Source: Candidatus Omnitrophota bacterium
GTDB taxonomy: Bacteria; Omnitrophota; Gorgyraeia; JABMRN01; RBG-13-46-9
Direction: 5' to 3'
DNA length: 34,138 nt
Assembly: GCA_016927795.1 (NCBI GenBank)
Contig: JAFGLX010000083.1
Span: 1-34,138, forward strand
Below the pieces are notes generated by a model. That model was not told where the DNA came from and made no database searches. It saw only the letters and a program-made list of their open reading frames with translations. Below, one piece after another: positions 1-19,370 of this stretch (its first letter is position 1; every line of letters begins with the position of its first letter). A program made the position numbers and the translations under genes.

Positions 1-525
1 AATTCTTATGTTGGAGAAAAATACAGAACGCGTTTCAGCTGTGCCCGATACGGAAACGTTGTAGGTTCGCGGGGAAGCGTCATTCCGCTTTTTAATAAAC
101 AAAAGGATACAGGCACGATCACAATTACGGATAAGAAGATGACACGTTTCTGGATTACCCTGGAGCAGGGGGTTGAATTTGTCATAAAAATGCTTAATAA
201 AATGCACGGAGGCGAAGTCTTTATTCCTAAGATACCAAGCATGAGGATTGTAGATTTGGCAGAAGCAATAGCTCCCAAATGCAAGATCAAATTGATCGGG
301 ATAAGGCCCGGGGAGAAGTTACACGAATGCCTTATTACCGAAAATGAAGCCAGGCATACGCTGGAATTTGACGACTTTTTTGTAATTGAACCGGAGCACC
401 CCTGGTGGGGCGTGGAAAATTGGCGAGGCGGCAAAACCTTGCCGGAAGATTTTAGTTATACAAGCGAAAAAAATACTAAATGGCTAACCAAGGCACAATT
501 ACATAAGATGCTAAAGGATATTTAG
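1..525 (+). CDS. pseB: UDP-N-acetylglucosamine 4,6-dehydratase (inverting), PseB/FlaA1/CapD family, C-terminal fragment; the 5' end lies outside the window
   Basis: Frame 1 is open from nt 1 (my translation: NSYVGEKYRTRFSCARYGNVVGSRGSVIPLFNKQKDTGTITITDKKMTRFW...) and runs into the listed 139-525 ORF. 'RYGNVVGSRGSVIP', 'ITD..MTRFWITL' and 'IGIRPGEKLHE' are hallmark C-terminal motifs of the Polysacc_synt_2/PseB family. It heads a pse-type operon. Confidence 0.85.
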   Translation, partial: NSYVGEKYRTRFSCARYGNVVGSRGSVIPLFNKQKDTGTITITDKKMTRFWITLEQGVEFVIKMLNKMHGGEVFIPKIPSMRIVDLAEAIAPKCKIKLIGIRPGEKLHECLITENEARHTLEFDDFFVIEPEHPWWGVENWRGGKTLPEDFSYTSEKNTKWLTKAQLHKMLKDI

Positions 526-528
526 CTC

Positions 529-1284
529 ATGGGTTTTCAGGGTAAGATTATCGCAAGCATAGAGGCGCGATTAGGTTCTAGGAGGCTACCCGGGAAGGCA
601 ATGAAAAAAATCTTAGGGAAGCCCATGCTGGAGTTAATGGTAGAAAGAGTTAAGAGGGCGCGTTTTATTGATGAGATTGTTATAGCGACATCCGTAAACC
701 CGGTCGATGACGCAATCAAGGCCCTAAGCGACAAATTGGGGGTAAAATGCTTCAGGGGGAGCGAAGACGACGTATTGGATAGGGTTCTCAAAGCCGTAAA
801 GCATTACGGCGGAGAACATATCGTTGAGTTGTGGGGCGACACACCCTTAATTGACCCTTTAATCATAGATGAAGTTATTAACTATTATTTCCGAAATAAA
901 CTTGACCTGGCTTCAACGTGCCTTGACCGCACTTTTCCGTGGGGAATGAGCGTATTGGTGTTTCCGACCCGGGTGCTGGATGAAGTTTCTCTGGTAACAA
1001 ACGACCCGGTTGACAGAGAAAACGTATCGAATTATATATACGAGCACCCGGAGAAATACAAAATAGGGCACTTACCGTGTCCTCCTGAATTAAACAGGCC
1101 GGAAATAAGGCTTACGGTTGACGAAGAGCCCGATTTCGAACTTGTTAAAATAATTTTTGAGAAGTTAGGGGCAAATAACACACTATTTTCTACGTTGGAC
1201 ATTATAAGATTTCTGGATAAGAATCCTGAATTTATAGAAATCAATAAATATGTTAAACAAAGAAAGCCAAGAGGCGATATCTAA
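529..1284 (+). CDS. Cytidylyltransferase, SpsF/PseF-like (CTP_transf_3 family); probable CMP-nonulosonate synthetase
   Basis: N-terminal 'IASIEARLGSRRLPGKAMKKILGKPMLELMVERVKRARFIDEIVIATS' is the typical nucleotide-binding signature of SpsF/NeuA-type cytidylyltransferases. The ATG lies 3 nt after the pseB stop. It is the only nucleotidyltransferase in the window. Confidence 0.7.
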   Translation: MGFQGKIIASIEARLGSRRLPGKAMKKILGKPMLELMVERVKRARFIDEIVIATSVNPVDDAIKALSDKLGVKCFRGSEDDVLDRVLKAVKHYGGEHIVELWGDTPLIDPLIIDEVINYYFRNKLDLASTCLDRTFPWGMSVLVFPTRVLDEVSLVTNDPVDRENVSNYIYEHPEKYKIGHLPCPPELNRPEIRLTVDEEPDFELVKIIFEKLGANNTLFSTLDIIRFLDKNPEFIEINKYVKQRKPRGDI

Positions 1285-2362
1285 TATAAAGACCGTTGAA
1301 AGGAACGGCGGGTCTTTTAAACCGCTGTGGGAAGAGTTCTGCAAAAAAAATGCTATTCCCGTATATTACACCATTGGCTGGCTTGAATTTTGCAGATGCA
1401 TCACACGGGAAAATTTTATAAGTGACGCAAGTTTTTTGATCACTAAGGACAACAAGCCTGTTTCGATTTGCCCTTTAATAATGGAAAGCGGGCGTTACGG
1501 AAAACAATTTTCCGTAAAGAACGGGCATCTCATGAGGGCTCCTGCATTCGAGGCGACCTTATCCTTTAAGGAGAGAAAGAAAATAGAAAAAGCTGTGTTT
1601 TTACATATTGAAGAATTGGCGCGTGCCGAGGAAGTATTGCTACACAGGGCCTTAATAGACCCCATGCTTATAATAGATCAGAGGTTTTACTGTAATTACC
1701 TATCCGAATTTTCCTATGTCGACTGTTCCATTCTGACCAATATTATCGACCTTAAATTGCCCGAGCAAACATTATGGGGCAATCTAAGGAAAAGTTACAG
1801 GCCCCTCATAAAAGGCGAAACTAAAAAATATGAAGTCATGTTTTTGGATTTTAAGAATATATCGGAGAGATTATTCGCGGAGTTCGAAAACCTCTATTTT
1901 TTAGCAAGCGGAAAGCACGTTTACAGCAGGCAGGAATGGGCAATCTTGTGCGAATTAGTGCGACAGGATAAAGGCATGTTGACCGTAGCTAAAACCGGCA
2001 ATAAAGCGATAGGCGGCGCCTATTTTAACCACGATAGCGGCAAGGCATATTATTCATTGGGCGCGAATCATCCGCAATATGAAAAGAACTATTTTATCGG
2101 GCATCGCTTGATTTGGGAAGCCATAACATATTACATAAGTAGAGGATTTCGTTGGCTGGAATTGGGATGGCAGTTTTACCCAGAGCAGCTGCTGGAAAAG
2201 CCCAGCGAAAAAGAAATAAATATTTCATATTTTAAAAGAGGGTTTGGCGGCATGAATTTTCCCCTCCACAGGGGTATCAGGTTCTTTAACGACGAGATAA
2301 AGAAAAAGTTCATAGACGAAAGCCTAAGCGCTTATCGATCCGGGAGGGATAAAAATGTTTAA
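1250..2362 (+). CDS. FemAB/CelD-like (Acetyltransf_6-type GNAT fold) acyl- or aminoacyl-transferase
   Basis: 'LWGNLRKSYRPLIKGETKKYEV', 'VAKTGNKAIGGAYFNHDSGKAYYSLGAN' and 'IGHRLIWEAITYYISRGFRWLELG' follow the conserved block pattern of FemX/FemAB and CelD/BioF2-like acyltransferases. The start overlaps the upstream gene by 35 nt and there is no later in-frame Met until about residue 78. Confidence 0.55.
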   Translation: MLNKESQEAISNIKTVERNGGSFKPLWEEFCKKNAIPVYYTIGWLEFCRCITRENFISDASFLITKDNKPVSICPLIMESGRYGKQFSVKNGHLMRAPAFEATLSFKERKKIEKAVFLHIEELARAEEVLLHRALIDPMLIIDQRFYCNYLSEFSYVDCSILTNIIDLKLPEQTLWGNLRKSYRPLIKGETKKYEVMFLDFKNISERLFAEFENLYFLASGKHVYSRQEWAILCELVRQDKGMLTVAKTGNKAIGGAYFNHDSGKAYYSLGANHPQYEKNYFIGHRLIWEAITYYISRGFRWLELGWQFYPEQLLEKPSEKEINISYFKRGFGGMNFPLHRGIRFFNDEIKKKFIDESLSAYRSGRDKNV

Positions 2363-3353
2363 GGTCGGGATAGTAGGATGCGGACATATAGCGAGTACTT
2401 TTGACGATGATCCTATGAGAAAGTATGTTTCGACTCATATAGGCGCTTACCGGGCGAACAGAAATACAGATGTTGTTGCCGTATGCGATATTGACCGGAA
2501 AAAACTCCGGGCGTGCATGAAAAAGTGGGATATAAAAAGCGGGTACACATCCGTGCAAAAAATGCTCGACAGAGAAAAAATAGACATACTGAGCATATGT
2601 ACGCCTGTAGAAACTCACGGCGCTATTTTGAGAAAAGCGGTGAATTTTCCCCTGAAGGCTATATTTTGCGAAAAACCGCTGGCAGATTCGACAAGCGAAG
2701 CAAAAAAGATAGTCAATATATGCAAACGTAAAAAAATAATTTTACAAGTAAACCACCAAAGGCGATTTGACCAGCTCCACGCGCGGGTGAGAGATGTCAT
2801 CCGCTATGGAAAATTGGGCGATGTTCAGCAGGTAACATTTTACTACACGGCCGGCATAAAAAATACAGGCTCCCACATGTTTGATTTGTTCTTGTTTCTG
2901 TTTGGCAAAGCCAAGGAGGTAATGGCATTTTCGAGCACCAACCGTTCCCATAAATTTCATGACCCCAATCTGGACGGATTTGTAAGATTCGAAAACGGAA
3001 TATTGGGTGTTTTTCAGGCATGTGATGCAAAAAAATACGTAATTTTTGAACTAAACTGCCTGTTGCAGGAAGGGAGAATTGTTATAAGAGACAGCGGCTT
3101 TTCCGTGGATTTCTACGTGTCCGGAAGAAGCAAATATTTTGCAGGGTATAGGGAACTCCTCAAGGCGAAGCCGCATTTAAAAGTAGAATATAAAAGGGAC
3201 TTTATGGTAAAGGCTGTGAGGCATCTTGTGGACTGTGTCAAAAAGAGCAAAGAGCCGATTTCATCGGGCAATGACGGAGTGGCTGTTTTGGAGTTGATTG
3301 AGGCCGCAAGTTCTTCGGCAGCCAAAAATGGAAAAAAAATACTTTTGAAGTAA
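2355..3353 (+). CDS. Gfo/Idh/MocA family NAD(P)-dependent oxidoreductase
   Basis: N-terminal Rossmann motif 'MFKVGIVGCGHIAS', 'CDIDRKK', 'ILSICTPVETHGAI' and 'IFCEKPLA' (the EKP motif of this family). GGGAGGG Shine-Dalgarno 5 nt upstream of the ATG. 8-nt overlap with the upstream gene. Confidence 0.8.
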   Translation: MFKVGIVGCGHIASTFDDDPMRKYVSTHIGAYRANRNTDVVAVCDIDRKKLRACMKKWDIKSGYTSVQKMLDREKIDILSICTPVETHGAILRKAVNFPLKAIFCEKPLADSTSEAKKIVNICKRKKIILQVNHQRRFDQLHARVRDVIRYGKLGDVQQVTFYYTAGIKNTGSHMFDLFLFLFGKAKEVMAFSSTNRSHKFHDPNLDGFVRFENGILGVFQACDAKKYVIFELNCLLQEGRIVIRDSGFSVDFYVSGRSKYFAGYRELLKAKPHLKVEYKRDFMVKAVRHLVDCVKKSKEPISSGNDGVAVLELIEAASSSAAKNGKKILLK

Positions 3354-3357
3354 CAAT

Positions 3358-4641
3358 ATGAGCAAACTAGCGCTTTTCGGCGGTAAAAAAATCAGGCGTA
3401 AACCTTTCGTGAGCCGGGCAATTGTCGGCAAAGAAGAATCGAAGAGGGTCAATTCCGTTTTAAAAAGTGGCATACTGTCGGGGTTTATCGCGAAATCCGG
3501 AGACGGATTTTTAGGCGGGAAGGAAGTCAGGGAATTCGAGTCTTTGGTGGGAGGTTATTTCGGTACGGAGCACGTAATATCGGTAAATTCAGCAACGGCA
3601 GGTCTTCATGTTGCTTTGGGGGCGTGCGGGATCGGTCCGGGCGACGAGGTAATAGTTACGCCTTACACAATGAGCGCTTCGGCCACGGCCATAATCATGC
3701 AGAACGCTATTCCCGTATTCGCGGATATTAGCGAAAACACATTTTGCATTGACCCCGGTAGCATTGAACAATGCATAACGGCTCGCACCAAAGCGATAAT
3801 CGTAGTTCATCTTTTTGGCCATCCGGCTGAAATGAATAGGATCAAAGCGCTTGCCAGGAAGTATAAACTTAAGATTATTGAAGATTGTGCTCAGGCGCCG
3901 GGAGCCGTATATAAAAAACAATTGGTTGGTACATTGGGGGATATAGGAATTTTTAGCCTTAATCAGCATAAAACCGTTACTTCCGGTGAAGGAGGATTTG
4001 CCATAACAAGAAACGCACGCTTGGCGCTTGGGATGCGTCTTATAAGAAACCACGGAGAGGTAATTGCCGGAAACATACGTCTTAAGGATATAAGCAACAT
4101 CGTGGGTTACAACTATCGGATGACTGAACTGGAAGCAGCTGTCAGCATAGGCCAATTCAGAAGGCTGGATTTTTTAAATGCCCATAGAATAAATTTGGCA
4201 CGTTATCTTACGGAGAAATTATCGAAATTCGAAGGTTTGACGCTTCCCGCGGAAGAAAGCGGCACCAAACATGTCTATTTTGTTTATCCTATCAGAATAA
4301 AAGAAAGCGAGGCCCGTATCCCGAGGGATGTTTTCGTGAAAGCGTTGAACGCGGAAGGGATACCCTGTGCCGCCGGTTATGTAAGGCCTATTTACCTGGA
4401 ACCGCTATATCAAAAGAAAATAGCATATGGCAGAAAGGGATGTCCATTTACCTGCGGTTTCTATAAAGGCAATGCCGTTTACTCGAAAGGTATTTGCCCT
4501 GTTGCGGAGAAAATGCATAGAAAGGAACTGGTCATAATTCCAGTATGCCGGTATCCCGAGACCCCGAGAGATATGGATGATGTGGTTAAAGCGTTTCAGA
4601 AGATTTTTAATAATCGGGATAAATTACGCAAATTTCAATGA
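3358..4641 (+). CDS. pseC: DegT/DnrJ/EryC1/StrS PLP-dependent sugar aminotransferase, PseC/SpsC-like
   Basis: 'VNSATAGLHVALGACGIGPGDEVIVTPYT', 'IIEDCAQAPGA' and the PLP-lysine block 'FSLNQHKTVTSGEGG' (K205). At 427 aa it is longer than typical PseC, with an extra Cys-containing segment (C362, C366, C380). Its position in the pse operon supports the call. Confidence 0.7.
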   Translation: MSKLALFGGKKIRRKPFVSRAIVGKEESKRVNSVLKSGILSGFIAKSGDGFLGGKEVREFESLVGGYFGTEHVISVNSATAGLHVALGACGIGPGDEVIVTPYTMSASATAIIMQNAIPVFADISENTFCIDPGSIEQCITARTKAIIVVHLFGHPAEMNRIKALARKYKLKIIEDCAQAPGAVYKKQLVGTLGDIGIFSLNQHKTVTSGEGGFAITRNARLALGMRLIRNHGEVIAGNIRLKDISNIVGYNYRMTELEAAVSIGQFRRLDFLNAHRINLARYLTEKLSKFEGLTLPAEESGTKHVYFVYPIRIKESEARIPRDVFVKALNAEGIPCAAGYVRPIYLEPLYQKKIAYGRKGCPFTCGFYKGNAVYSKGICPVAEKMHRKELVIIPVCRYPETPRDMDDVVKAFQKIFNNRDKLRKFQ

Positions 4642-6119
4642 TGAAAGTTCATATTCTGACCGAAGGCGGAAAAGGTATCGGGCTCGGCCATATTACCAGA
4701 TGTATTTCATTATATCAAGCTTTTAAGAAGAGGGGCATTTCGCCGACTTTGGTAATAAATGGCGACGACTCGGTCCGTAAGCTTTTAAAGGGAAAAAAAT
4801 ACCGCGTTTTCAATTGGCTGAAAGAACAAAAAAAGCTTTTCCAGATGATAAGAAAAGGCGACATCGCTGTTATAGATTCATATCTGGCAGGGCATAGAAC
4901 CTATAAGAAGATATCAGATTTAGCGCCTATTTCCGCATACCTCGACGATTATAAAAGGCTGGTTTATCCGCGCGGTATAGTAATAAATGGCGGTTTTCAA
5001 GCCAAAGATATAAGGTATCCCCGGAAAGAAAACATTAAGTATTTGCTGGGGCCCGGTTTTATCCCTATAAGAACGGAATTCCGCGATATGCCCCCCAGAA
5101 AAATAAGGCCGGTAATAAAAAGCATTTTGATATCATTCGGCGGATGCGACACGAAAAACCTGACGGCGAAGCTTTTAGAATTTTTAAACGCCATGTACCC
5201 TAATGTCAGAAAAAATATTCTTATAAGTGACGCATTCAAGGATACACAGGTAGCTGAAAAGCCGGCCGAACCGATGTGCGTTTTTATTAAAAATCCGGAC
5301 CCAATGAAACTAAAGACCGTTATGCTCAACTCTGACATCGCTATCTCAGCGGGCGGGCAGACGTTGAACGAGTTAGCCAGAACCGGAACGCCAACAATAG
5401 GGGTATGCGTTGCCGAGAACCAAAAAATGCACCTTTCCTACTGGGCAGAGACAGGTTTTTTGAGCTATGCAGGCCGTTACGATGATAAGGACCTTCTAAA
5501 AAAGGTGCACCGTGCTATTATAAGCTTACAGGATAAGAGAGTGCGAAAGGGTATGTCTCTGTGCGGCAGGGAGACTGTTGACGGGCGTGGTCCGGAAAGA
5601 ATTATAAAATTTATCTTATCCGAATATTTCAGAAACAGGCTCACCTTGCAGAAGGCCACTCTTCGGGACGCAAGGGAAATTTTTAATCTTTCGACGGACA
5701 AAGAAGTAAGAAAGAATTCCTTTCAGCCAAAAAGGTTTGATTTCAAACATCACCTGGGATGGCTTCGTGAAAGACTTAGAGACGTAAATTGTGTTTTTTA
5801 TATATTTAAAATCGGCCATGAGTTTATAGGACAGTTGAGATTTAACGTGGACAACGAAAAAAAATGCGCCACAGTAAACATAAGCCTGGTAGAAAAAATG
5901 CGAAACTTCAATTTATCGTCTTTCCTTGTAGAAAATTCTATTCGTAAACTGCTTAAACATCACAAGCACCTTCGGTCAATAAGGGCTTATGTAAAAAGGC
6001 ACAACATAGCCTCCGTTAAACTGTTTGAGCGCACAAATTTTAAATTTAGCGGAAACAGAACCGTAAAAGGCGCAAAAACAAGAGTTTATATACGAAAGGT
6101 TTCTGCGGGCAATGTTTAA
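4638..6119 (+). CDS. Bifunctional PseG-like UDP-sugar hydrolase (N-terminal, about 330 aa) fused to a PseH-like GNAT N-acetyltransferase (C-terminal, about 150 aa)
   Basis: The N-terminus 'KVHILTEGGKGIGLGHITRCISLYQAF' and 'ISAGGQTLNELARTGTPTIGV' match the SpsG/PseG GT-B-like hydrolase pattern. The C-terminus 'LTLQKATLRDAREIFNLSTDKEVRKNSF...HHLGWL...FIGQLRF...IRAYVKRHNIASVKLFERTNFKFSG' matches the PseH-type GNAT pattern. ATGA overlap with the aminotransferase gene. Confidence 0.7.
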   Translation: MMKVHILTEGGKGIGLGHITRCISLYQAFKKRGISPTLVINGDDSVRKLLKGKKYRVFNWLKEQKKLFQMIRKGDIAVIDSYLAGHRTYKKISDLAPISAYLDDYKRLVYPRGIVINGGFQAKDIRYPRKENIKYLLGPGFIPIRTEFRDMPPRKIRPVIKSILISFGGCDTKNLTAKLLEFLNAMYPNVRKNILISDAFKDTQVAEKPAEPMCVFIKNPDPMKLKTVMLNSDIAISAGGQTLNELARTGTPTIGVCVAENQKMHLSYWAETGFLSYAGRYDDKDLLKKVHRAIISLQDKRVRKGMSLCGRETVDGRGPERIIKFILSEYFRNRLTLQKATLRDAREIFNLSTDKEVRKNSFQPKRFDFKHHLGWLRERLRDVNCVFYIFKIGHEFIGQLRFNVDNEKKCATVNISLVEKMRNFNLSSFLVENSIRKLLKHHKHLRSIRAYVKRHNIASVKLFERTNFKFSGNRTVKGAKTRVYIRKVSAGNV

Positions 6120-7140
6120 AAAAATAAATAAAAAGAATTCCGCAACGTTCGTCATAGCGGAAATATCGGCAAATCACAACCAAGACCTGGAGAGGGCCGT
6201 GTCTTTGATTAAAAAAGCGCGGGAATGCGGAGCTGATGCGGTTAAATTTCAGACCTATACCCCCGACACTATTACCTTAAACGTAAATAACAAATATTTC
6301 AGAGTCAAGCACCCAAAATGGGGCAACCGTACTTTATACCAATTATATAAAACCGCCTATACGCCGTGGCATTGGTTCGCCAGGCTGAAGAAAGTTGCGG
6401 ACAGGGCAGGAATAGTTTTTTTCTCAACCGCCTTTGACAAAAGCGCGGTGGATTTTTTGGAGAACTTAAACGTTCCGTTTCATAAGATAGCATCCTTTGA
6501 GTTAGTGGATTTGCCTCTCATTGAATATGCGGCAGGTACGAAGAAGCCGCTTATATTGTCAACCGGTATGGCTACGATTCCGGAGATAAAGGAAGCGTTT
6601 TTTACTGCGAAGAGAGCCGGGGCAAAAGATGTCGTACTTCTGAAATGCGTAAGCAATTACCCCGCTCGCCCCGATGATATGAATCTAAAAGAGATAATCA
6701 AGTTGAAAAAAATTTTCAAATGCCCTATAGGTCTTTCCGACCATAGCCTTGGGACGGCAGTCGCATTGGCGGCGGTTTCATTGGGCGCTAAAGTAATCGA
6801 GAAACATTTCACCTTATCGAAAAAGTCAAAAGGGCCGGATAATTTCTTTTCCATTGAGCCGCAAGAGCTGAAATCCCTTGTGGAGAACATAAGAATTGTC
6901 GAGAGGGCATTAGGTAGCGATGCCCGCAAGCTGACGGCTGAAGAGAAGGGGAGCCTTGTTTTCAGGCGTTCGCTGTTTGCAGTACGGGACATAAAAAAAG
7001 GGGAAATCTTTACGGAAGATAAAATAAGGTCTATAAGACCGGCCTACGGTCTGCACCCGAAATTTTTAAAATACCTTTTAGGGAGAAAGGCCAGGAAAGA
7101 CATAAAAAAAGGAATGCCCTTGAGCAAGGATATGCTATGA
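6112..7140 (+). CDS. pseI: NeuB-family nonulosonic acid synthase, most likely pseudaminic acid synthase
   Basis: 'FVIAEISANHNQDLERAVSLIKKARECGADAVKFQTY', 'STGMATIPEI' and 'GLSDHSLG', plus a C-terminal SAF-like domain 'RRSLFAVRDIKKGEIFTEDKIRSIRP'. PseI rather than NeuB/LegI is inferred from the PseB/PseG/PseH context. Confidence 0.8.
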   Translation: MFKKINKKNSATFVIAEISANHNQDLERAVSLIKKARECGADAVKFQTYTPDTITLNVNNKYFRVKHPKWGNRTLYQLYKTAYTPWHWFARLKKVADRAGIVFFSTAFDKSAVDFLENLNVPFHKIASFELVDLPLIEYAAGTKKPLILSTGMATIPEIKEAFFTAKRAGAKDVVLLKCVSNYPARPDDMNLKEIIKLKKIFKCPIGLSDHSLGTAVALAAVSLGAKVIEKHFTLSKKSKGPDNFFSIEPQELKSLVENIRIVERALGSDARKLTAEEKGSLVFRRSLFAVRDIKKGEIFTEDKIRSIRPAYGLHPKFLKYLLGRKARKDIKKGMPLSKDML

Positions 7141-8990
7141 AATTAATATTATTCGGCTATGTGGACAAGCTCTCCTCATTGTGCCCCTTTCTTAGGCGCC
7201 ATAGTTTGCCTGGTGGCGCTGAAGCGGCAACACTGGTTTCAATGAATCGTTTTGCCGGAGAAACGCTTGGTCTCGGAGAAATAATGTATTCCGAAGAGTT
7301 TTTAAAAAAAGAGGATTTTGAATACATGGACGAATACATCTCCCGGACAAGCCGGATATGCCGGGAGTTTTTGTCAAACGATGAAAAGACAAGCGCGTTA
7401 AAAGGCATAAAGGTCACAGATGTATTAGAACTGGAGATTTACATGTATTTGTGCACGGTGATAAAAAACCTGCAGGTAACGTTGAACATCGTAGAGGCAA
7501 TTAATCCCTCGGAGATTCTTATTATAGGCGAAAAATCTACAGATGGCCTGGAGCAAATATCAAGGTTTCTGGCGGAGCGTCTTAATATTAAATCAACCTA
7601 CATAACGGTTAAAAACGGCCTCGTCCCCGAAGCCGGCATGAGAAAAATTTGTGAAAAAGCAAGTTCCTTTGCTGCAAAGATAATAACAGAACTTTTAGAC
7701 AGACTTGAAAGATTCCTCCTTTTAAGATCAAGAAAACACGGAAAATCCATTATAATGGATTATAGGTTTCCCGAGCTTGTTAAAGGCATAGAGAAAGAAC
7801 ACGTAGCCATGCCGTATATTGCCGGTTGGGGATTGCGGATCAGGCTGAATTTTATTAAACAGAGAAAGCTATACCTGTCTTTTTTGAAAGTCCATAATCC
7901 ACTGAACAAAAGAAGAGGCAGAGGATACTTTCTCGCGATAAATAAAATTCTTGAAAAAGGCTTTGCCGAAAACGAATATTTACGGTACAGGGGCTACAAC
8001 ATTTACCGCATATTGAAAAATATATTTCGCGAACAAATTGAGAACGAATTACCTTTGATGAAAGAAAATATTTCAATGCTTTGCCGTTTTTTTGACGGTG
8101 TAGGCCCGAAGGCGGTTATAGTGAGGGATTCCACGCGAAACTGGGAACATGCGCTTACCTTAGTGGCAAAAAGTAAGAATCTCCCCAGCATTGTTGTGCA
8201 GCATGGTATTACAAGTATAATGAATGTTTACGCGAAACAACACGCTACGGCAGTAGCTTTTTGGGGCGATGTTTACCTGAGGTTATATAAGGCCGCCGGT
8301 ACCGATACGTCAAAATCGAAGGTAACCGGTTACCCGCAACACGACCGTATATACGCAGGGCAGGGTGAAAGGTATAAAAGGTACCGTAAGATACTCTCGG
8401 ATTCAGGGGCCGATCCCGACAAAAAAACGGTTGTATATCTCGCCAGCTGCATAAAGTATTACCCGATAAATTCTGTATACCTTACGCCTGAGGTATCATT
8501 TTTTCTCCTGAGAGAGGTGTTAAGCGTTTTTGGAACGCTTAAGAATCTGCAACTAATAATAAAACTGCATCCTTTTTATGACAGGCAGGAGTACCCGCGC
8601 TTCAAGGAGGAAGTATCCGGGTTTACAAACGCATTTATTGTAAGAAACGCGGATATCCCGGATTTATTCAGCGGTTCTATCTGTGTCGTATCAGAGCTTT
8701 TCTCGAGCGCGATAATGGATGCGATTATACTGAAGAAACCCGTTATATTTTTTAATGCAATGGAAAAGGAGGAAGCGATACCCATAGAAGAACGGAAGGT
8801 GGGCATAGAAGTAAGATCGCGGGCAGATTTAATGGATGCGCTTCAACGTATCGTTGCCTCAGATAACACGCATGACCTGTTTCCGAATAAAGCATTTGAA
8901 GACTTCGTTGGGGATTTTGCGTATAAGGTAGACGGACGCTCTTCCGAAAGGGTCAGGCATTTTATAAACGATTTAATCCCCTCCGCATAA
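7137..8990 (+). CDS. Two-domain protein of unknown function; the C-terminal half resembles TagB/TagF-type CDP-glycerol glycerophosphotransferases (GT-B-like)
   Basis: C-terminal blocks 'IVVQHGITS' (cf. the WHG motif), 'TVVYLASC', 'LIIKLHPFYD' (cf. the K-x-HP motif) and 'VSELFSSAIMDAIILKKPVIFFN' follow the order of Glyphos_transf family motifs. I recognise no family in the N-terminal ~330 aa. ATGA overlap with the synthase gene. Confidence 0.45.
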   Translation: MKLILFGYVDKLSSLCPFLRRHSLPGGAEAATLVSMNRFAGETLGLGEIMYSEEFLKKEDFEYMDEYISRTSRICREFLSNDEKTSALKGIKVTDVLELEIYMYLCTVIKNLQVTLNIVEAINPSEILIIGEKSTDGLEQISRFLAERLNIKSTYITVKNGLVPEAGMRKICEKASSFAAKIITELLDRLERFLLLRSRKHGKSIIMDYRFPELVKGIEKEHVAMPYIAGWGLRIRLNFIKQRKLYLSFLKVHNPLNKRRGRGYFLAINKILEKGFAENEYLRYRGYNIYRILKNIFREQIENELPLMKENISMLCRFFDGVGPKAVIVRDSTRNWEHALTLVAKSKNLPSIVVQHGITSIMNVYAKQHATAVAFWGDVYLRLYKAAGTDTSKSKVTGYPQHDRIYAGQGERYKRYRKILSDSGADPDKKTVVYLASCIKYYPINSVYLTPEVSFFLLREVLSVFGTLKNLQLIIKLHPFYDRQEYPRFKEEVSGFTNAFIVRNADIPDLFSGSICVVSELFSSAIMDAIILKKPVIFFNAMEKEEAIPIEERKVGIEVRSRADLMDALQRIVASDNTHDLFPNKAFEDFVGDFAYKVDGRSSERVRHFINDLIPSA

Positions 8991-9017
8991 TACGAAGGGA
9001 AAAGTGATTTCTGCTTA

Positions 9018-9034
9018 GGGGAGGGAGCTCCACT
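9018..9034 (+). repeat. Short version of the GGGAGGGAGC/TCCACT intergenic motif, which also occurs at 18001-18034
   Basis: GGGGAGGGAGCTCCACT lies 9 nt upstream of the flippase ATG (9044). GGGAGGGAGC and TCCACT are identical to the arms flanking the 18-nt GC-rich insert at 18011-18028. Confidence 0.5.
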
Positions 9035-9043
9035 AGTCACAAG

Positions 9044-10507
9044 ATGAAAGACAAAATAATAAAGAGCACTCTGGTATATTCCATTTCCATATTTATCTCA
9101 AGGATATTCGGCTTTTTCCGAAGTATCATAGTGGCGCGTTTTCTCGGCCCCAAGCTTTACGGTATGTGGAACGCGCTTTCAATTATTCTAGAGTACAACC
9201 GTTATTCAAGCCTCGGCGTACTAACCGCCATGAACCGGGAAATACCGTTCTTTAGGGGGAAGGGTGATTCTGCCAAAGTTGAGCGCCTAAGGAGGACAGG
9301 TTTTTCTATGGCCTGCATCCCTTCTTTTGTTGTAGGGCTGATACTCACTTTAATTTCCATATTTATCAAACCTCACGCCGGAACGGAATGGGTGATGGCG
9401 CTGCGCACTATAGCGGTTCTGGTCTTTGCAAGGCAGCTTTACGAATTTTTTACGCTTTTGCTACGGTCTGACAACAGATTTTTATATTTGAGCAAAATAC
9501 TTATTTTGTTTTCGGTATCTGACCTTATACTAATATTAGTTCTGGTTATAAGATATGGCTTTTATGGATTTTTGTGGGCCATGGGCATTAACTATGTCGG
9601 GATAGTCTTATATATTTTTCTTAGAGAATACCGCCGATACAACCTCAAGCTATTTTTTGAAAAAGACATCTTGGGCTATCTTATAAGATTGGGGATGCTT
9701 ATGGCGATTATAGGCATAATTATAGATTTAAGAACAACGATTGACCGCCTTATGATAGCCAGATTTCTTGGGGTTACAGAGCTGGGTTATTTCGGCATAT
9801 CGTATGTTTTAATCCAGTTTATTTTTTTGATTCCCTCAGCGCTATCTCAGATAGTATACCCCCGTTTGGTCGAAAAATACGGTTCCTCCAACCGCGACAC
9901 ATCTACTTTGAGAAAATATATAGAAGTTTCAACCCTTGGGCTCGCTTACTTAATGCCGCTTTTAATAGGCCCGATTTTTATTCTTCTTCCTTTTGGAGTT
10001 AAGCTTTTACTGCCGCAATATATTTATGGCATTAAGGCTGCCCAGATAACCATTCTGGGCCTGTTCTTTTTTAGTACGGGCATAATTGCCGCAAATTTCC
10101 TGATTACAACAGACAGGCTTGGCTGGTATCTTGGGTTTTCATTTGTGGCTGTACTAATTAATATACTAGCGGACTATATTTTGCTTAAGATCGGATTCGG
10201 CATAGAAGGCGTTGCCTTCGGGGGAATCCTTTTTACTTCGTGTATCTACGCAACGTGCATTTTAGCCTTTGTAATGTTCCATTATCTAGGTCACGTATTC
10301 AGGGTATTCCTTTATATGATAAAAGCTTATTTCCCGTTTTTTTACACAATAGTTATATTAATGTTTTTCAGTTACCTTAAACTGGGGATGGCAAGCAGGA
10401 CGGTAGTTTTCTGCGTTTTGTACATACCACTACTGTGGAAACTCGAGCGTGATACGCAAATCCTAAGTTTGATTTTCGTTAACATACGGCAAGGCATAAA
10501 GAAATGA
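9044..10507 (+). CDS. Wzx-like oligosaccharide/polysaccharide flippase (MOP superfamily, Polysacc_synt type)
   Basis: 487 aa with roughly 12-14 hydrophobic segments. The N-terminus 'SISIFISRIFGFFRSIIVARFLGPKLYGMWNAL' is typical of Wzx/SpoVB/MurJ-like exporters. It is preceded by a 53-nt spacer carrying GGGGAGGGAG. Confidence 0.7.
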   Translation: MKDKIIKSTLVYSISIFISRIFGFFRSIIVARFLGPKLYGMWNALSIILEYNRYSSLGVLTAMNREIPFFRGKGDSAKVERLRRTGFSMACIPSFVVGLILTLISIFIKPHAGTEWVMALRTIAVLVFARQLYEFFTLLLRSDNRFLYLSKILILFSVSDLILILVLVIRYGFYGFLWAMGINYVGIVLYIFLREYRRYNLKLFFEKDILGYLIRLGMLMAIIGIIIDLRTTIDRLMIARFLGVTELGYFGISYVLIQFIFLIPSALSQIVYPRLVEKYGSSNRDTSTLRKYIEVSTLGLAYLMPLLIGPIFILLPFGVKLLLPQYIYGIKAAQITILGLFFFSTGIIAANFLITTDRLGWYLGFSFVAVLINILADYILLKIGFGIEGVAFGGILFTSCIYATCILAFVMFHYLGHVFRVFLYMIKAYFPFFYTIVILMFFSYLKLGMASRTVVFCVLYIPLLWKLERDTQILSLIFVNIRQGIKK

Positions 10508-11790
10508 CCGGCACGGAAAAAACAAAAGAAAAAATGTTGTCACGATTACTTACATGGACTCTGGTAGGCTTTTTGCTCAGATTGGCCATAATGCCTGTTA
10601 CCATGCACGGCCAGGACCTCACTTTTATAAATTATTTCCCTTACGCATTCATCACCGAAGGCGCCTGGAACCCTTACGCTTTCATAAGCATGAATTTTCC
10701 GAATTTTCCACACACTTATTACGGACCTGTACTGTTCGCAATCATGTCGGCGGCGAATTTCGTGTTTATCAAGCTGTTTAATTGCGTTACTCTCGGCAAA
10801 TTGCTTGCAATGTCGGCCGGCATGATGGCTAAAAATTCAGGTACCCTTGATTATATTCACGCCTTTTCGGGTCTATCACTCTTTAAAAATTTATTTCTGA
10901 TGAAAAGCCCGTATCTTATATTCGATTTCCTGATAGGCGGAATCCTGTTAAAGCTCGCCTCTGGAGAAAGAAAGGCGCTATCAAGCTATAAGCTCTGGAT
11001 ATTCAATGTGGTCGTTTTACATTCTGCCTACGCTGTCGGGCAATTTGATTTAATCCCGACTTTTTTTGTGATACTAGCGTTGTTATTGGCTACGGCAAAA
11101 ATGCCTTATCTTTGCATAATTTCGCTATGCCTTGGCGGAGGGACAAAGGTTTTTCCATTCATACTTGTATTACCTGCAGTTTTACTTTTGGGTAATAACT
11201 GGCGAAAGAGAGCCTTTCTTTTATTTACCGCTTTGATTACGACTCTATTTATATATTTGCCGTTTTATTTATCTTCCGGCAATGCATTGTTTGATGTTTT
11301 CGCGCAGGGACGGTATTATACAGGCATGACACATATTATATTAAGCGGCGTATTCTTTATTTTTTACATAGCGCTATCTTTAAATGCCCTGGCTGATTCC
11401 AAAAAAGACGCACCGGAAAACCAGTTATTTTATTACTTTCTTACTTTATGCTTTTTGGTTTATGCGGTAACCCCTATAGGTTTCAGGTATTTTGTCTTTG
11501 CAACACCTTTTATTGCATTACTTATTCCTGCCAATGGAAAGTTCGGTCTATTTACGTTTTTCATTGTTCTGTTTCTCGCGTTTCTGCGACTGCCAACGCG
11601 GGATGTGCAATTAGGCCTTTTTGCGCCTCTTAATCCACAATATTTTATGAGCATCCCGACCATCCAGGAGGTTATAGGAAGGTTCGTAGACATTAACATG
11701 GCTTATAAGCTGGCAGCTAGAGCACTGCTTTTCTCCTTTTTTGCTGCTGCCGGATGGGTATGGAAGATTAAAGCAAAGGAAGCGATATAA
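10504..11790 (+). CDS. Polytopic membrane protein, GT-C-like (DUF2029/GT87- or PIG-M-like) candidate lipid-phosphate-sugar-dependent glycosyltransferase
   Basis: At least 10 hydrophobic segments, with an acidic residue just after TM1 ('MHGQDLTF'). 'YYGPVLF', 'AVGQFDLIPTFFVILALLLA', 'GGGTKVFPFILVLP' and 'GFRYFVFATPF' resemble conserved GT-C blocks. ATGA overlap with the flippase gene. Confidence 0.45.
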   Translation: MTGTEKTKEKMLSRLLTWTLVGFLLRLAIMPVTMHGQDLTFINYFPYAFITEGAWNPYAFISMNFPNFPHTYYGPVLFAIMSAANFVFIKLFNCVTLGKLLAMSAGMMAKNSGTLDYIHAFSGLSLFKNLFLMKSPYLIFDFLIGGILLKLASGERKALSSYKLWIFNVVVLHSAYAVGQFDLIPTFFVILALLLATAKMPYLCIISLCLGGGTKVFPFILVLPAVLLLGNNWRKRAFLLFTALITTLFIYLPFYLSSGNALFDVFAQGRYYTGMTHIILSGVFFIFYIALSLNALADSKKDAPENQLFYYFLTLCFLVYAVTPIGFRYFVFATPFIALLIPANGKFGLFTFFIVLFLAFLRLPTRDVQLGLFAPLNPQYFMSIPTIQEVIGRFVDINMAYKLAARALLFSFFAAAGWVWKIKAKEAI

Positions 11791-12770
11791 TGAAAAAAAT
11801 TAGGGAACATCTGAAAAAGAACAGAAATTTGGTAAACATATTTTTCGTCTACTTCTTCCTTGCATTTGTGATCGGTTATATAGATTTTGACCGGAGGGTA
11901 CTGCCTTTTAAGGAAAGCACGGCTACACTTAAACGCGTCGTAGAAAGGACAGCCGTACCGCCTCTTGCGCGACGGCCTCTTGTACCTTTTACGGTATATT
12001 TTATGCATAAGGTATCTCACCTCCCGCTCGAATATACTTACGCGCTTTTCAGGTTGTTTTTTTTCATTCTGGCGTTTTGCCTTTTTCACGTCTATCTTAG
12101 ATTGTGGTTTGACGATAGGCTTGCGATGATAGGGACGCTCTCTGTGATAGCGTCCTTGCCGCTTTTTCTTACTAACTGGATTAGCGTTTTCACGGACATG
12201 CCGAACTTTGTAGCTTTTATACTGGGAACTATGTGGATTAAACAGAACAGGCACAGGCTCCTATATATATTGATACCCATAGCGACCCTTAACAAGGAGG
12301 CGATCGTTGCTATAGTTGTCCTTTATTTCCTGTACAACACACACAAAGAAAAACCGGGCATTTTGGCAAGGAGGATTGCCATAATGCTTTTCTTGTGGGC
12401 AGCCCCTTACGTATGGACAATTGTTACTTTCGGTTTGCAGACCTTTACGGATAACGGCGCCTCTTATCTTGTACCGTGTACGGTGAAGCATAACATCAAG
12501 GGGCTTTTGGCATTTTTTAAAAATCCGCACCCCTACAATCATTACTATTTTTTGATTTATTTACTGGGATTTTACTGGGTTTTGGCCTTTCGAAATTTTT
12601 CGCGCAAAGACGAGCTTTTGAAAAAATCAATCATTGTAATGGCGCTTTATTCGTTTTACGTATTCTGGAGAGTAGGCGCAATAAACGAGGTAAGGGTGTT
12701 TATACCGTTTTACGTTTACATAATACCGCTCGGACTTTTTAGTTTATTTGAGAAAAAAGAGGTTGAATAG
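11790..12770 (+). CDS. Polytopic integral membrane protein of unknown function (possibly a Wzy-like polymerase or small GT-C-like transferase)
   Basis: 326 aa with about 9 hydrophobic segments. It has 'DFD' directly after TM1, then 'RRPLVPF', 'ATLNKEAIVAIVV' and a C-terminal 'NEVRVFIPFYVYIIP'. 1-nt TAATG junction with the upstream gene. No soluble domain is recognisable. Confidence 0.55.
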   Translation: MKKIREHLKKNRNLVNIFFVYFFLAFVIGYIDFDRRVLPFKESTATLKRVVERTAVPPLARRPLVPFTVYFMHKVSHLPLEYTYALFRLFFFILAFCLFHVYLRLWFDDRLAMIGTLSVIASLPLFLTNWISVFTDMPNFVAFILGTMWIKQNRHRLLYILIPIATLNKEAIVAIVVLYFLYNTHKEKPGILARRIAIMLFLWAAPYVWTIVTFGLQTFTDNGASYLVPCTVKHNIKGLLAFFKNPHPYNHYYFLIYLLGFYWVLAFRNFSRKDELLKKSIIVMALYSFYVFWRVGAINEVRVFIPFYVYIIPLGLFSLFEKKEVE

Positions 12771-12843
12771 AGCGGGAAAAGAGAACATCCTTTTTTAGCC
12801 CATTTGCAAGAGGATGTGCGGTAAGTTCACAAAATAGCAGTTC

Positions 12844-13953
12844 ATGAAAAATATAACAAAAAATACAGTTATTTTTCTTGTCAGCACGTTGTTGTGTTTT
12901 CTGGTTTTGGAGGCATTATTAAGAATTTACAATCCGTTTCAATGGAGAGTTAAAGGGGATAAAATTATTTTGCCCGTAAACCGCAAGTATATTTTTGATA
13001 ATGACAAAATAGACAAGCTCGACAGAAAGATCATACATTCTAAAAATTCGCTTGGATTCAGAGGAGAAAACCCCCCAAAAAATTTTAGCGATTATCTGTC
13101 AATAGTTATCGTAGGCGGAAGCACCGCCGAGTGTTTTTATCTGTCAGACGGCAGGGATTGGCCGTATCTAGTGGGGCAAAAACTTAAAAACATATACGAT
13201 AAGGTATGGGTTAACAATGCAGGTTTAGCCGGCCACTCTACCTTCGGGCACATAATTCTCGTAAACGACTACTTAACGCGTTTGAAACCTAAAATAATAA
13301 TTTTTGAGGTCGGCGCTAACGACATAGGCAGGGATGATTTAGGCAAGTATGACAGGGTTGCGTTAAAAGGACGCTATTCCTCCTTTAAAAACTTTATTGT
13401 TAAAAACAGTGAAGTTGTATCTTTGCTCGCCAATATGGTGAGACTGGCAAAAGCCCAAAAAATGGGCATCACCCATAGAAATTTAGATGTTGTTAAAGCG
13501 GATAAACTGGTGCTTCCCGAAGGAAATATTGAAAAAGAGGTTAATCACCATAAATCCGGATACATCGATGGTTACAAAAAAAGGCTTTTGCAGCTTGTGG
13601 ATATATGCAGAAAAAACAGGATAGAGCCGATTTTTGTTACCCAACCCATCCTCTGTGGAAATACGGTGGACGCGACAACAGAGGTTGACCTTGGAGACGT
13701 GAAGTTGTCGGATTCCATGAACGGGAATTTATGCTGGCGTATTATGCAAGTTTATAATAACGCCACAAAAGAGGTGGCAGGTCGCACAGGAACTTTTGTC
13801 ATAGACCTGGCCAGTGAAATGCCGAAAGATTCCCGTTATTTCTACGATAATTGGCATTATACAAATGAAGGGGCCGAGAAAGTATCGCAAATAGTTTTTG
13901 AGAAGCTAAAAAACTATCTTGATGTGGAATATAAAGCAAATCTGAAAAAATGA
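12844..13953 (+). CDS. Membrane-anchored SGNH/GDSL-family hydrolase or acyl-esterase
   Basis: N-terminal TM 'VIFLVSTLLCFLVLEALL'. SGNH blocks: I 'VIVGGSTAE' (Ser kept, GDS Asp replaced by Gly), II 'NAGLAGHST', III 'EVGANDIG', V 'DNWHYT'. Confidence 0.7.
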   Translation: MKNITKNTVIFLVSTLLCFLVLEALLRIYNPFQWRVKGDKIILPVNRKYIFDNDKIDKLDRKIIHSKNSLGFRGENPPKNFSDYLSIVIVGGSTAECFYLSDGRDWPYLVGQKLKNIYDKVWVNNAGLAGHSTFGHIILVNDYLTRLKPKIIIFEVGANDIGRDDLGKYDRVALKGRYSSFKNFIVKNSEVVSLLANMVRLAKAQKMGITHRNLDVVKADKLVLPEGNIEKEVNHHKSGYIDGYKKRLLQLVDICRKNRIEPIFVTQPILCGNTVDATTEVDLGDVKLSDSMNGNLCWRIMQVYNNATKEVAGRTGTFVIDLASEMPKDSRYFYDNWHYTNEGAEKVSQIVFEKLKNYLDVEYKANLKK

Positions 13954-14966
13954 ACCCAAAAAAATACATCTTTATCACAATATTTTTAGCGGCAGTCTTT
14001 GTCTTTGTTATATTAGAGATCGGCCTGCGATGCTATACATATGTAAGATACTCTACCAATACGGTGAGGTTTGTACCGCACTCAAGGTTAATTTATGAAC
14101 ACAGGCCCTCTATCACTTTTGTTAATAAAGAAGGGATAAAGATTACATATAATTCTTTAGGCTTTATCGGTGATGAAATAAGCCCGAAGGGCAACAATGT
14201 GTTTAGAATATTGAGCATTGGTGATTCTATTGCGTCCGGAGAGTATTTACAAAAAAATCAGAGATATATAAATATGATGGGCGACATACTGTCCAAACAC
14301 ACAACCAAGAAAATTGATATAGTAAACGCCGGAGTCATAGGGTATAATTCGTGGCAAGAAGCAGAGCTCTTGAAGACCAAAGGTTTAAGTGTAAAACCCG
14401 ACCTAATAATCGTGAGTTTGTGTTTTAACGATGACCGCGGCTGGAGGCCGGAGATTAGGAAAACATGGTTTGGCGGCATAAGAGAAATACCGCGGCATCA
14501 CAAAAAAGCCCGGCATCTGAACTTTCTTTATCAGCGAAGCCAATTATTCCAGTTTATTTATGACCGAATGTATTTTCTTAAGAAATCTCTCAAGAAGCAA
14601 AAACGTTATTATGAAGAACATGAATGGAAATCGGAGATGAAAAAGTGGCGAGAGCCTCTCGAAGAAATAATTTCATTAGCCAAGGATCATAACATCGAGA
14701 TATTGTTTGTTGTATTTCCCCTGGAACAGCAGATATTAAAAAAAGAAGATAATTCTTCGAAACCGCTTGCGGATTTTTTCAAGGAAAGAAATATCTATTT
14801 TCTGGACATGATAAAAGCTTTTAACCGTAACTCTGACAAAAAATTGTATATAGAGCGCGACTCGATTCATCCTAATGCAACGGGCAGCGCAATCGCGGCG
14901 GAGGCAATGGCAAACTATATAATAGAAAAGAAAATTCCGTTTTTTTCCGGCAAAAACGGGCTATAA
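13950..14966 (+). CDS. Membrane-anchored SGNH/GDSL-family hydrolase or acyl-esterase (paralog of the upstream gene)
   Basis: N-terminal TM 'IFITIFLAAVFVFVILEIGL'. SGNH blocks: I 'LSIGDSIASG', II 'NAGVIGYNS', III 'SLCFNDD', V 'DSIHPN'. It shares the pre-catalytic 'NSLGF.G' motif with the 12844 gene. ATGA overlap. Confidence 0.75.
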   Translation: MNPKKYIFITIFLAAVFVFVILEIGLRCYTYVRYSTNTVRFVPHSRLIYEHRPSITFVNKEGIKITYNSLGFIGDEISPKGNNVFRILSIGDSIASGEYLQKNQRYINMMGDILSKHTTKKIDIVNAGVIGYNSWQEAELLKTKGLSVKPDLIIVSLCFNDDRGWRPEIRKTWFGGIREIPRHHKKARHLNFLYQRSQLFQFIYDRMYFLKKSLKKQKRYYEEHEWKSEMKKWREPLEEIISLAKDHNIEILFVVFPLEQQILKKEDNSSKPLADFFKERNIYFLDMIKAFNRNSDKKLYIERDSIHPNATGSAIAAEAMANYIIEKKIPFFSGKNGL

Positions 14967-17977: not shown

Positions 17978-18000
17978 TCCCTAAGAGGAGTTGTGGAAGA

Positions 18001-18034
18001 GGGAGGGAGCCCCGGCCAGGCCGGGGGCTCCACT
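18001..18034 (+). promoter_or_regulatory. GC-rich intercistronic stem-loop embedded in a Shine-Dalgarno-like motif
   Basis: GGGAGGGAGCCCCGGCCAGGCCGGGGGCTCCACT. Nt 18006-18016 can pair with 18020-18031, giving about 11 bp with one bulged G (18023) and a 3-nt loop. The following sequence is ACTTTACATG, so there is no U-tract. It lies between the DegT stop (17977) and the ATG at 18039. Confidence 0.6.
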
Positions 18035-18038
18035 TTAC

Positions 18039-19340: not shown

Positions 19341-19370
19341 GTACGGAATAAAAACAGAAAGGCGATTATA

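Follow-up and report, generated by a model that had tools for sequence, protein, structure and literature searches.

The window analysed here is a stretch of 34,138 nucleotides from a Candidatus Omnitrophota bacterium (assembly GCA_016927795.1, contig JAFGLX010000083.1). It has a G+C content of 42.5% and forms a single long cluster of polysaccharide genes that run co-directionally on the + strand. The gene of interest is the open reading frame (ORF) 7137..8990 (+), the sole long ORF at that position, whose 617-amino-acid (aa) product, the target protein, carries motifs of TagB/TagF glycerophosphotransferases and is encoded between the pseudaminic acid (Pse) synthase gene pseI and a gene for a Wzx-type flippase. 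Bases 7137-7140 read ATGA, so that the ATG of the target gene overlaps the TGA stop of pseI (6112..7140), implying translational coupling of the two. An AAGGA sequence lies 6-10 nt upstream of the ATG. The first three residues, M1-K2-L3, are invariant across six homologs, which supports the start codon at 7137.

A reading of this stretch from its letters alone, hereafter the sequence-only reading, had described the overlapping start and stop codons and four TagB/TagF motifs in the C-terminal half of the protein, and both descriptions hold. The translation contains VVQHG at about residues 352-357, VVYLAS at 432-437, IIKLHPF at 474-480 and SELFSSAIMDAIILKKPVIFF at 519-539, and Pfam PF04464 (Glyphos_transf) matches residues 389-610 well beyond chance (E 5.5e-11, 42.5 bits, gathering score 22.1). 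The alignment takes in profile positions 155-365 of 367, and only the nucleotide-binding half of the target is matched. Residues 1-340 matched no Pfam family even at E<=1, and the Pfam scan of the target gave no match to Capsule_synth (PF05159), Epimerase_2 (PF02350) or a sialyltransferase family. A search of the protein for membrane segments found no genuine transmembrane segment; a hydrophobic segment at residue 514 was considered as a membrane helix and rejected, as the structural model described below places it in a buried beta-strand, SELFSS. The motifs to which we return below are as follows.

8199..8207, + strand: Q355-H356-G357, in the N-domain at the end of strand 351-354 of the model; candidate catalytic base, analogous to TagF His444
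8325..8345, + strand: T397-G-Y-P-Q-H-D403, interdomain linker motif corresponding to GYPRxD of TagF/TarL
8562..8573, + strand: K476-L-H478-P479, the "HP" motif, predicted to stabilize the leaving-group phosphate of cytidine monophosphate (CMP)
8691..8741, + strand: SELFSS...KKP segment of the nucleotide-binding domain (S523/S524, K534-P535), aligned to SDLLITDYSS...KP of TagF, TarL and Cps3D
8931..8951, + strand: D599-G-R-S-S-E-R605, C-terminal motif common to TagF-family enzymes

These positions are well kept in alignment A2, which comprises sixty diverse members of the family. All 60 keep G357, G377, G398, D403 and K476; P479, K534 and D599 are each present in 59, S523 in 58, R605 in 57 and H356 in 56. 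Residue 478 of K-x-H-P is His in 50 of the 60 and Asp in the other 10, a substitution that we record as an observation in its own right.

The family itself is large. A word-indexed homolog search returned five other full-length homologs (43-59% identity), all metagenomic, and repeating it with the 60-sequence alignment or with a distant member reached no further than this full-length set. The size of the family was exposed by an exhaustive profile search, which returned 3625 representatives at E<=1e-3, of which 106, counted as clusters at 50% identity, reach E<=1e-30. Most of these relatives are 600-660 aa long and are matched end to end, so that the N-terminal region is evidently a conserved part of the family. 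Two relatives come from metagenome-assembled genomes (MAGs) of Candidatus Omnitrophota: a fragment with 61% identity and a full-length protein with 37% identity, MFC1667060.1 (P0009), which NCBI names "CDP-glycerol glycerophosphotransferase family protein" (CDP, cytidine diphosphate). Another relative, P0156, is labeled "UDP-N-acetylglucosamine 2-epimerase" by IMG (UDP, uridine diphosphate). The two names conflict, and neither fits the gene context.

Each of the sixty A2 members was also scanned separately against Pfam and NCBIfam. In Pfam, 51 of the 60 match Glyphos_transf, 41 match Capsule_synth weakly and 40 match Epimerase_2 weakly, and a single relative matches A-2_8-polyST at E 0.004. 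In NCBIfam, every one of the sixty matches NF046086, the "BFO_1060 family glycosyltransferase" (best E 3.7e-38), and 59 match TIGR04396. NF046086 takes its name from BFO_1060, the Tannerella forsythia FDC 92A2 copy of a legionaminic acid (Leg) transferase. Of ten members examined singly, nine had NF046086 as their first-ranked family and one had it narrowly behind TIGR04396, with scores of 54-122 bits that extended in some cases over profile positions 35-365 and in all cases stayed below the 200-bit cutoff. For the target, NF046086 is again the top NCBIfam match, at 36.4 bits over residues 469-614 (~145 residues). It did not reach the cutoffs of TIGR04396 (surface carbohydrate biosynthesis protein; 36 bits, cutoff 125) or TIGR04326 (LIC13510 family; 24 bits, cutoff 250), and it gave no match to the NCBIfam wecB/NeuC models. 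The profile searches that the sequence-only reading had proposed thus place Glyphos_transf on the nucleotide-binding half alone and make NF046086 the best curated family for the target. From its sequence, the target appears to be a divergent and larger relative of these families, below the cutoffs of NF046086, TIGR04396 and TIGR04326, and passing that of PF04464 only through the shared nucleotide-binding half.

Genes that resemble a Pse pathway fill the window upstream of the target gene, and membrane proteins follow directly downstream.

1..525, + strand: 3' part of a gene for a PseB-like UDP-N-acetylglucosamine (UDP-GlcNAc) 4,6-dehydratase, cut by the window start (TIGR03589 PseB positions 197-323, E 7e-49)
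529..1284, + strand: CTP_transf_3 cytidylyltransferase of KdsB/PseF/NeuA type (PF02348, E 3.8e-29)
1250..2362, + strand: FemAB-like acyl/aminoacyl transferase (Pfam and NCBIfam matches)
2355..3353, + strand: GFO/IDH/MocA oxidoreductase (Pfam and NCBIfam matches)
3358..4641, + strand: PseC-like aminotransferase (DegT family, E 1.3e-95; best NCBIfam match TIGR03588 PseC, 235.6 bits, below cutoff)
4638..6119, + strand: PseG-like UDP-sugar hydrolase fused to a GNAT (PseH-like) acyltransferase, 493 aa (NCBIfam matches below cutoff)
6112..7140, + strand: PseI pseudaminic acid synthase, NeuB family with SAF domain (TIGR03586, 460.5 bits against an equivalog cutoff of 340.25; Pfam NeuB, E 1.6e-92)
9044..10507, + strand: Wzx-type (MOP) flippase directly downstream of the target gene (Polysacc_synt_3; 13 hydrophobic segments)
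10504..11790, + strand: polytopic membrane protein, 428 aa (9 hydrophobic segments; no Pfam or NCBIfam match)

The PseB-like gene is simply cut by the window, its frame 1 being open from base 1; a frameshift there was considered and rejected. The product of 529..1284 matches the NCBIfam KdsB and PseF models below their cutoffs and is predicted from its sequence to make a CMP-activated nonulosonate. In the fusion protein of 4638..6119, residues 2-264 match TIGR03590 (PseG) at 129.6 bits and residues 343-472 match TIGR03585 (PseH) at 31.5 bits, against a PseH cutoff of 93. The FemAB-like and GFO/IDH/MocA genes occupy the same position in two related loci (L001 and L004), and their products probably tailor the nonulosonate. 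As a side observation, the PseG-GNAT fusion with its weak PseH match, together with these two genes, suggests that the sugar made here is a non-standard N-acyl derivative of Pse. Two polytopic membrane proteins with no family match are encoded downstream of wzx. One is the product of 10504..11790, whose counterpart follows Wzx in L004, L006, L011 and L016 and which we take, by inference, as a candidate Wzy-type polymerase. Further downstream lie genes for eight conventional GT2/GT4-type glycosyltransferases, GT-C-like PMT_2 and PTPS_related/YfhO proteins, three more DegT aminotransferases and a second amino-sugar pathway. The window has no flagellin context.

The sequence-only reading had further stated that the window holds no gene of TagD or TarI type and that a CMP-nonulosonate is the only cytidylyl-activated donor encoded in it, and both statements are borne out. 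Pfam scans of all long + strand ORFs of the window found no CTP_transf_like (TagD), IspD (TarI), LicC or phosphoenolpyruvate (PEP) mutase gene, and the CTP_transf_3 protein of 529..1284 is the sole cytidylyl-activating enzyme in the 34 kb.

To examine gene context beyond this genome, we gathered related loci through exact-protein look-ups and a metagenome scan with a 17-sequence alignment, and probed them with PseI, the cytidylyltransferase and further proteins encoded in the window. Duplicates were merged (L001=L002=L003, L004=L005, L013=L014=L015, L011=L035) and contigs shorter than ~6 kb were set aside, leaving 15 non-redundant informative loci with a homolog that reaches E<=1e-30 against the target. 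In 11 of the 15 (L001, L004, L006, L010, L011/35, L012, L013, L032, L034, L037, L038), a NeuB-family gene is found no more than 10 kb from the homolog, which answers positively the question, posed by the sequence-only reading, of whether homologs co-occur with neuB-family genes. Since NeuB-family genes number at most a few per genome, this linkage is far above any plausible chance rate, as judged without a formal background set. A NeuB or CTP_transf_3 gene immediately adjoins the homolog in six loci: the NeuB gene overlaps or abuts it in L001, L004, L006 and L012, and CTP_transf_3 adjoins it in L032 and L037. All close homologs (43-59% identity) keep the order NeuB, homolog, Wzx, even where the locus is otherwise different (L006), and nearly all loci place a Wzx flippase next to the homolog or at most two genes away. 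Of seven weaker relatives (E 1e-9 to 1e-18), two have a NeuB gene nearby, so that the link tracks closeness to the target, as would be expected of an association tied to this family.

Two of these loci deserve separate mention. L034 (1-19560) encodes two family members (7647-9560, + strand; 11050-12975, - strand) along with two NeuB and two CTP_transf_3 genes; its second member has IPL in place of QHG but keeps KLHP, and aligns over 570 columns with an hhalign probability of 99.8. L038, from an NCBI Omnitrophota MAG, runs through PseB, PseC, PseF, PseG, a formyltransferase, PseI and two further genes to the homolog and Wzx, with a Wza-type export gene upstream.

The matches to PF04464 raise the alternative that the target is a TagB/TagF-type alditol-phosphate transferase, supplied with CDP-glycerol or CDP-ribitol by genes elsewhere in the genome. 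Its PF04464 score is above the gathering threshold, the 37%-identical homolog bears an NCBI name of this kind, and the closest solved structures by profile are of this group. Searches of the PDB by sequence, with the target alone and with a six-sequence profile, returned nothing even at E<=10, and the 60-sequence profile found the TagF-like polymerase Cps3D (1e-7), TarL (2e-6), TagF (3e-5) and KpsC (3e-3). These profile alignments pair TGxPxxD with GYPRxD (TagF 496-546, TarL, Cps3D), KLHPF with KMHPF (TarL), SdlvItedS with SDLLITDYSS, KPvI with KPxI, and DGxSSERV with DGRSSERL (TarL; DGQATKR in Cps3D). TagF, TagB, TarL and Cps3D have in common with the target a GT-B fold, the C-domain motifs GxPxxD, KxHP, SS, KP and DGxSxxR, and CMP as leaving group, the last predicted for the target. 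Against this, the target is matched by only the second half of the PF04464 profile, its N-domain is unrelated in sequence, and the window has no CDP-alditol supply gene. Nor does any of the 12 Pfam-annotated related loci carry a PF01467 (TagD) or PF01128 (TarI/IspD) gene; TagD and TarI probe sequences likewise gave nothing convincing in any of the loci, which is weak evidence. Among the sixty A2 members, TarB is matched by six and TarF by three, compared with all sixty for the BFO_1060 family. An alditol-phosphate transferase would also leave the repeated tight linkage to NeuB and CTP_transf_3 genes unexplained, and we consider this alternative unlikely.

The predicted structure settles the nature of the N-terminal region more clearly than that of the donor. 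An AlphaFold model built from six sequences (predicted local distance difference test score, pLDDT, 71; Foldseek template modeling, TM, scores 0.3-0.45) was superseded by one built from 60 sequences (pLDDT 92.6, predicted TM score 0.92). In the latter the whole chain is a single GT-B fold of two Rossmann-like domains, to which belongs a C-terminal helix that crosses back. The strands of the N-domain (2-6, 31-35, 126-131, 152-157, 205-208, 224-227, 326-329, 351-354 and 372-375) are interrupted by helices at 58-79, 93-122, 164-197, 255-278 and 290-322, and the nucleotide-binding domain comprises residues ~425-617. The sequence-only reading had recognized no family in the N-terminal ~330 aa. That stands as far as Pfam is concerned, but a separate N-terminal domain family was rejected: in the model the region makes up the acceptor-side half of the GT-B fold, into which long helices are inserted. 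Foldseek returned 286 PDB matches at E<=0.001, the best 50 of which are all GT-B proteins, and TagF is among the matches (E 1e-8). The model thus confirms the GT-B fold and leaves the donor unsettled.

Structural likeness also underlies a second alternative, in which the target would be an enzyme of the nonulosonate pathway, either epimerase- or hydrolase-like and acting on a nucleotide sugar, or decorating the CMP-nonulosonate. The UDP-GlcNAc 2-epimerases (WecB, MnaA, NeuC) give the best structural superposition, 40 of the 60 relatives match Epimerase_2, one relative carries the IMG epimerase label, and co-occurrence with NeuB would be expected equally. The Pse route (PseB, C, H, G, I, F), however, needs no 2-epimerase, and a PseG is already present. 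The target itself is unmatched by Pfam Epimerase_2 and by the wecB/NeuC models; its likeness to these enzymes is confined to the fold and reflects the shared GT-B architecture. The family is located at the junction with Wzx and the glycosyltransferases, outside the pathway block, and is found with differently built nonulosonate loci (L006, L037, L038); moreover, its nearest curated family consists of glycosyltransferases with knock-out support. A role within the pathway therefore seems to us rather improbable.

We favor the reading that ORF 7137..8990 encodes a cytoplasmic, metal-independent GT-B glycosyltransferase that transfers a CMP-activated Pse derivative to an undecaprenyl-diphosphate-linked oligosaccharide, and give it a probability of roughly 0.6. 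The donor would be the product of the upstream PseB, cytidylyltransferase, FemAB-like, oxidoreductase, PseC, PseG-GNAT and PseI proteins. One residue would be added at the cytoplasmic face of the membrane, and the adjacent Wzx would then flip the unit across for Wzy-type polymerization. Action at the cytoplasmic face fits a protein that has no membrane segment and whose next gene is wzx.

The proposed chemistry borrows from two groups of enzymes. The 2010 work of Lovering is said to have assigned the catalytic histidines of TagF to His444 in the N-domain and His584 in the C-domain. In GT-B sialyltransferases, the histidine of the HP motif and a Ser-Ser clamp act on the CMP phosphate. For the target we propose that the C-terminal Rossmann domain (~425-617) holds CMP through K476-x-H478-P479, S523-S524, K534-P535 and D599-G-x-S-S-x-R605, with K476, H478, S523/S524, K534 and R605 stabilizing the departing phosphate. 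In the cleft of the N-domain, H356, which by analogy would be the counterpart of TagF His444, or else E337 or D403, would deprotonate the acceptor hydroxyl, which would attack C2 of the CMP-linked Pse derivative by direct displacement, with no metal and probably with inversion. CMP would leave, as it does in the reaction of TagF with CDP-glycerol. Because CDP-glycerol and CMP-Pse both release CMP, a TagF-type domain could be reused for a CMP-sugar; the predicted donor would make the reaction a glycosyl transfer rather than the phosphodiester formation of the TagF group.

The sequence-only reading had proposed that the protein may transfer or polymerize the Pse derivative. Transfer gains support from the coupling to PseI, the conserved neighborhood and the NF046086 matches. 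The other half of the proposal would make the target a processive, TagF-like polymerase of a Pse homopolymer or of a Pse-containing backbone. TagF, TarL and Cps3D, its closest solved relatives, do polymerize, and in the model the extra helical insertions of the N-domain could form a membrane- or polymer-binding platform. The locus, however, is of Wzx/Wzy type, with candidate Wzy proteins and many single-addition glycosyltransferases, and the 34-kb window contains no ATP-binding cassette (ABC) transporter of KpsMT or TagGH type; the Tannerella relatives described next add a single terminal residue. Processive polymerization is thus very unlikely, and transfer of one sugar before flipping by Wzx the more likely course.

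In function, the target most resembles the Leg and Pse transferases of Tannerella, for which Tomek et al. (2017) found that T. forsythia deletion mutants without Tanf_01245 (in the Pse strain) or TFUB4_00887 (in the Leg strain) lose the nonulosonate, and nothing else, from the S-layer O-glycan (PMC5420450). Those proteins are 442-445 aa long, have a TagB/GT-B domain, are encoded directly after the CMP-nonulosonate genes and were described as having HP, D/E-D/E-G and DXD motifs (PMC5420450). Shared with the target are the TagB/GT-B type, the gene position directly downstream of a CMP-nonulosonate locus, the HP motif and the lack of a membrane segment. The target, at 617 aa, is ~170 residues longer; it has no D/E-D/E-G, and its sole DxD is DPD at 426. 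Its likely acceptor also differs, being a Wzx-dependent polysaccharide unit rather than a Bacteroidota protein O-glycan. The evidence from Tannerella consists of genetic knock-outs and is not enzymatic. That TagB-like proteins beside nonulosonate genes act as nonulosonate transferases has thus already been published with knock-outs (PMC5420450), and the idea is less novel than the sequence-only reading implied.

In chemistry, the target most resembles GT-B transferases that use CMP-sugars. KpsS1 of Acinetobacter baumannii (GT118) is the one pseudaminyltransferase for polysaccharides with biochemical proof, as cited in PMC12887879. Like the beta-Kdo (3-deoxy-D-manno-oct-2-ulosonic acid) transferases KpsC, KpsS and WbbB, it is GT-B-like and uses a CMP-activated ulosonic acid, and our family approaches this group through the weak Capsule_synth matches of 41 of the 60 relatives and the KpsC match at E 3e-3. 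KpsS1 presumably also belongs to the Pfam Capsule_synth family. It is a retaining enzyme whose base is the Glu of a YE motif; the target family conserves QHG and KxHP instead, which suggests a different and probably inverting chemistry. The donor class predicted for the target, CMP-nonulosonates, is also that of Maf/FlmG and of the GT38, GT52 and GT80 sialyltransferases. All three of the latter belong to GT-B and combine an HP motif with a Ser-Ser clamp for the phosphate (Freiberger 2007, as cited in PMC5420450). By sequence, the target matches neither Maf/FlmG nor, in Pfam, the GT38, GT42, GT52 or GT80 sialyltransferases.

Several observations weigh against a Pse transferase. The target (36.4 bits) and its relatives (at most 122 bits) score far below the 200-bit cutoff of NF046086, and the target's match is confined to the nucleotide-binding half, which is common to enzymes with other donors. 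The bacterial sialyltransferase motif [DE][DE]G is absent from the whole target sequence. The top Foldseek matches are UDP-GlcNAc 2-epimerases (E 4e-10; TM 0.66-0.69, normalized to target length), and no sialyl- or Kdo-transferase is among the best 50 of the 286 matches, so that the structural comparison proposed by the sequence-only reading yielded a single GT-B fold and TagF but not the sialyl- or Kdo-transferases it had named. In Bacillus subtilis, SpsB, a TagB-domain protein encoded beside Leg genes, is not needed for Leg transfer (PMC7439481). Gene neighborhood by itself does not fully distinguish a transferase from a tailoring enzyme of the biosynthetic pathway, and four of the 15 loci have no NeuB gene nearby (L016, L031, L036, L017). 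The upstream side of L016 is cut. In L031 only 4 kb lie upstream, occupied by genes for GNAT, formyltransferase, radical-SAM and methyltransferase proteins, and near the homolog of L036 NeuB and cytidylyltransferase genes are both missing. The fourth, L017, warns that donor choice varies within the family.

In L017, a 23%-identical relative follows a PEP mutase-NTP_transf_3 fusion (566 aa, 7001-8701) and an Fe-alcohol dehydrogenase (8704-9849) in a cassette spanning 7001-11656, with no NeuB within ±10 kb. PEP mutase-nucleotidyltransferase fusions make CMP-phosphonates (PMC6697681), and by its gene content L017 resembles a CMP-phosphonate cassette in which the TagF-like protein is the candidate phosphonate transferase. 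It bears on a further alternative, in which the target transfers some other CMP- or CDP-linked, non-sugar group (phosphonate, phosphocholine), or the sugar of an ordinary nucleoside diphosphate (NDP)-sugar, and merely sits beside Pse genes. L017 and L036 both lend this some support. The window, however, offers no gene that would activate such a group, be it PEP mutase, LicC or another, the NeuB neighbor is kept by all close homologs, and the eight GT2/GT4-type glycosyltransferases of the window are already there to use NDP-sugars; we regard an unrelated donor as a long shot. At the same time, L017 supports the logic by which a family member is encoded next to the gene producing its CMP-linked donor.

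Taking these contexts together, we put forward, tentatively and as somewhat less probable than not, that the ~620-aa family is a new glycosyltransferase family and a general "CMP-X transferase" scaffold, found mostly in uncultured bacteria such as Omnitrophota. It would join a TagF-type CMP-binding domain to a family-specific, insertion-rich acceptor domain, and its donor could be read from the neighboring gene: pseudaminic, legionaminic or further nonulosonic acids mostly, and CMP-phosphonates in some members (L017). If true, such a scaffold bridges the surface chemistry of teichoic acids, nonulosonates and phosphonates.

Few Pse or Leg transferases are known: Maf/FlmG, which act on flagellins, the GT118 enzyme KpsS1, and the Tannerella enzymes with their genetic support. 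So short a list limits both the prediction of glycan structures from genomes and the chemoenzymatic synthesis of these sugars. Judging by sequence, the target belongs to a large, uncharacterized and mis-annotated family of putative nonulosonate transferases from uncultured bacteria. Being uniformly sized and well modeled, the family would add many candidate enzymes, and its recognition would correct the public labels "CDP-glycerol glycerophosphotransferase family protein" and "UDP-N-acetylglucosamine 2-epimerase." The apparent CMP-phosphonate context of L017 offers a tractable system for the choice between phosphoryl and glycosyl transfer in a TagF-type active site.

Some features of the related loci and of the rest of the window are recorded here as minor observations. 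Two loci encode a ~790-aa fusion of a DAO/amino-oxidase-type flavoprotein domain with NeuB and SAF (L032, 5748-8129; L013, 2268-4640), which is unusual for a nonulosonate synthase. In four related loci (L001, 2047-2406; L004, 84-443; L032, 3377-3727; L038, 1786-2400), the PseB-like gene is closely preceded by a small HTH_24 (Lrp/AsnC-like) gene, which could be a dedicated regulator; the corresponding position falls outside our window. Within the window, a 439-aa protein with 12 hydrophobic segments (22088-23407) and a partial membrane protein (33423-34136) have no Pfam match, and either could be a second Wzy- or O-antigen-ligase-like protein. Tandem paralogous genes for GDSL-type esterases/acyltransferases (12844-14966; 369 and 338 aa), whose products each have a single hydrophobic segment at the N-terminus, may serve to O-acylate or deacylate the polysaccharide. 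Finally, a module of GT1, (DegT), PMT_2-type GT-C, GT2 and PTPS_related/YfhO-like proteins (15720-22081) recurs after Wzx in L001, L032 and L035, and is perhaps a conserved periplasmic glycan-modification unit using a polyprenyl-phosphate sugar.

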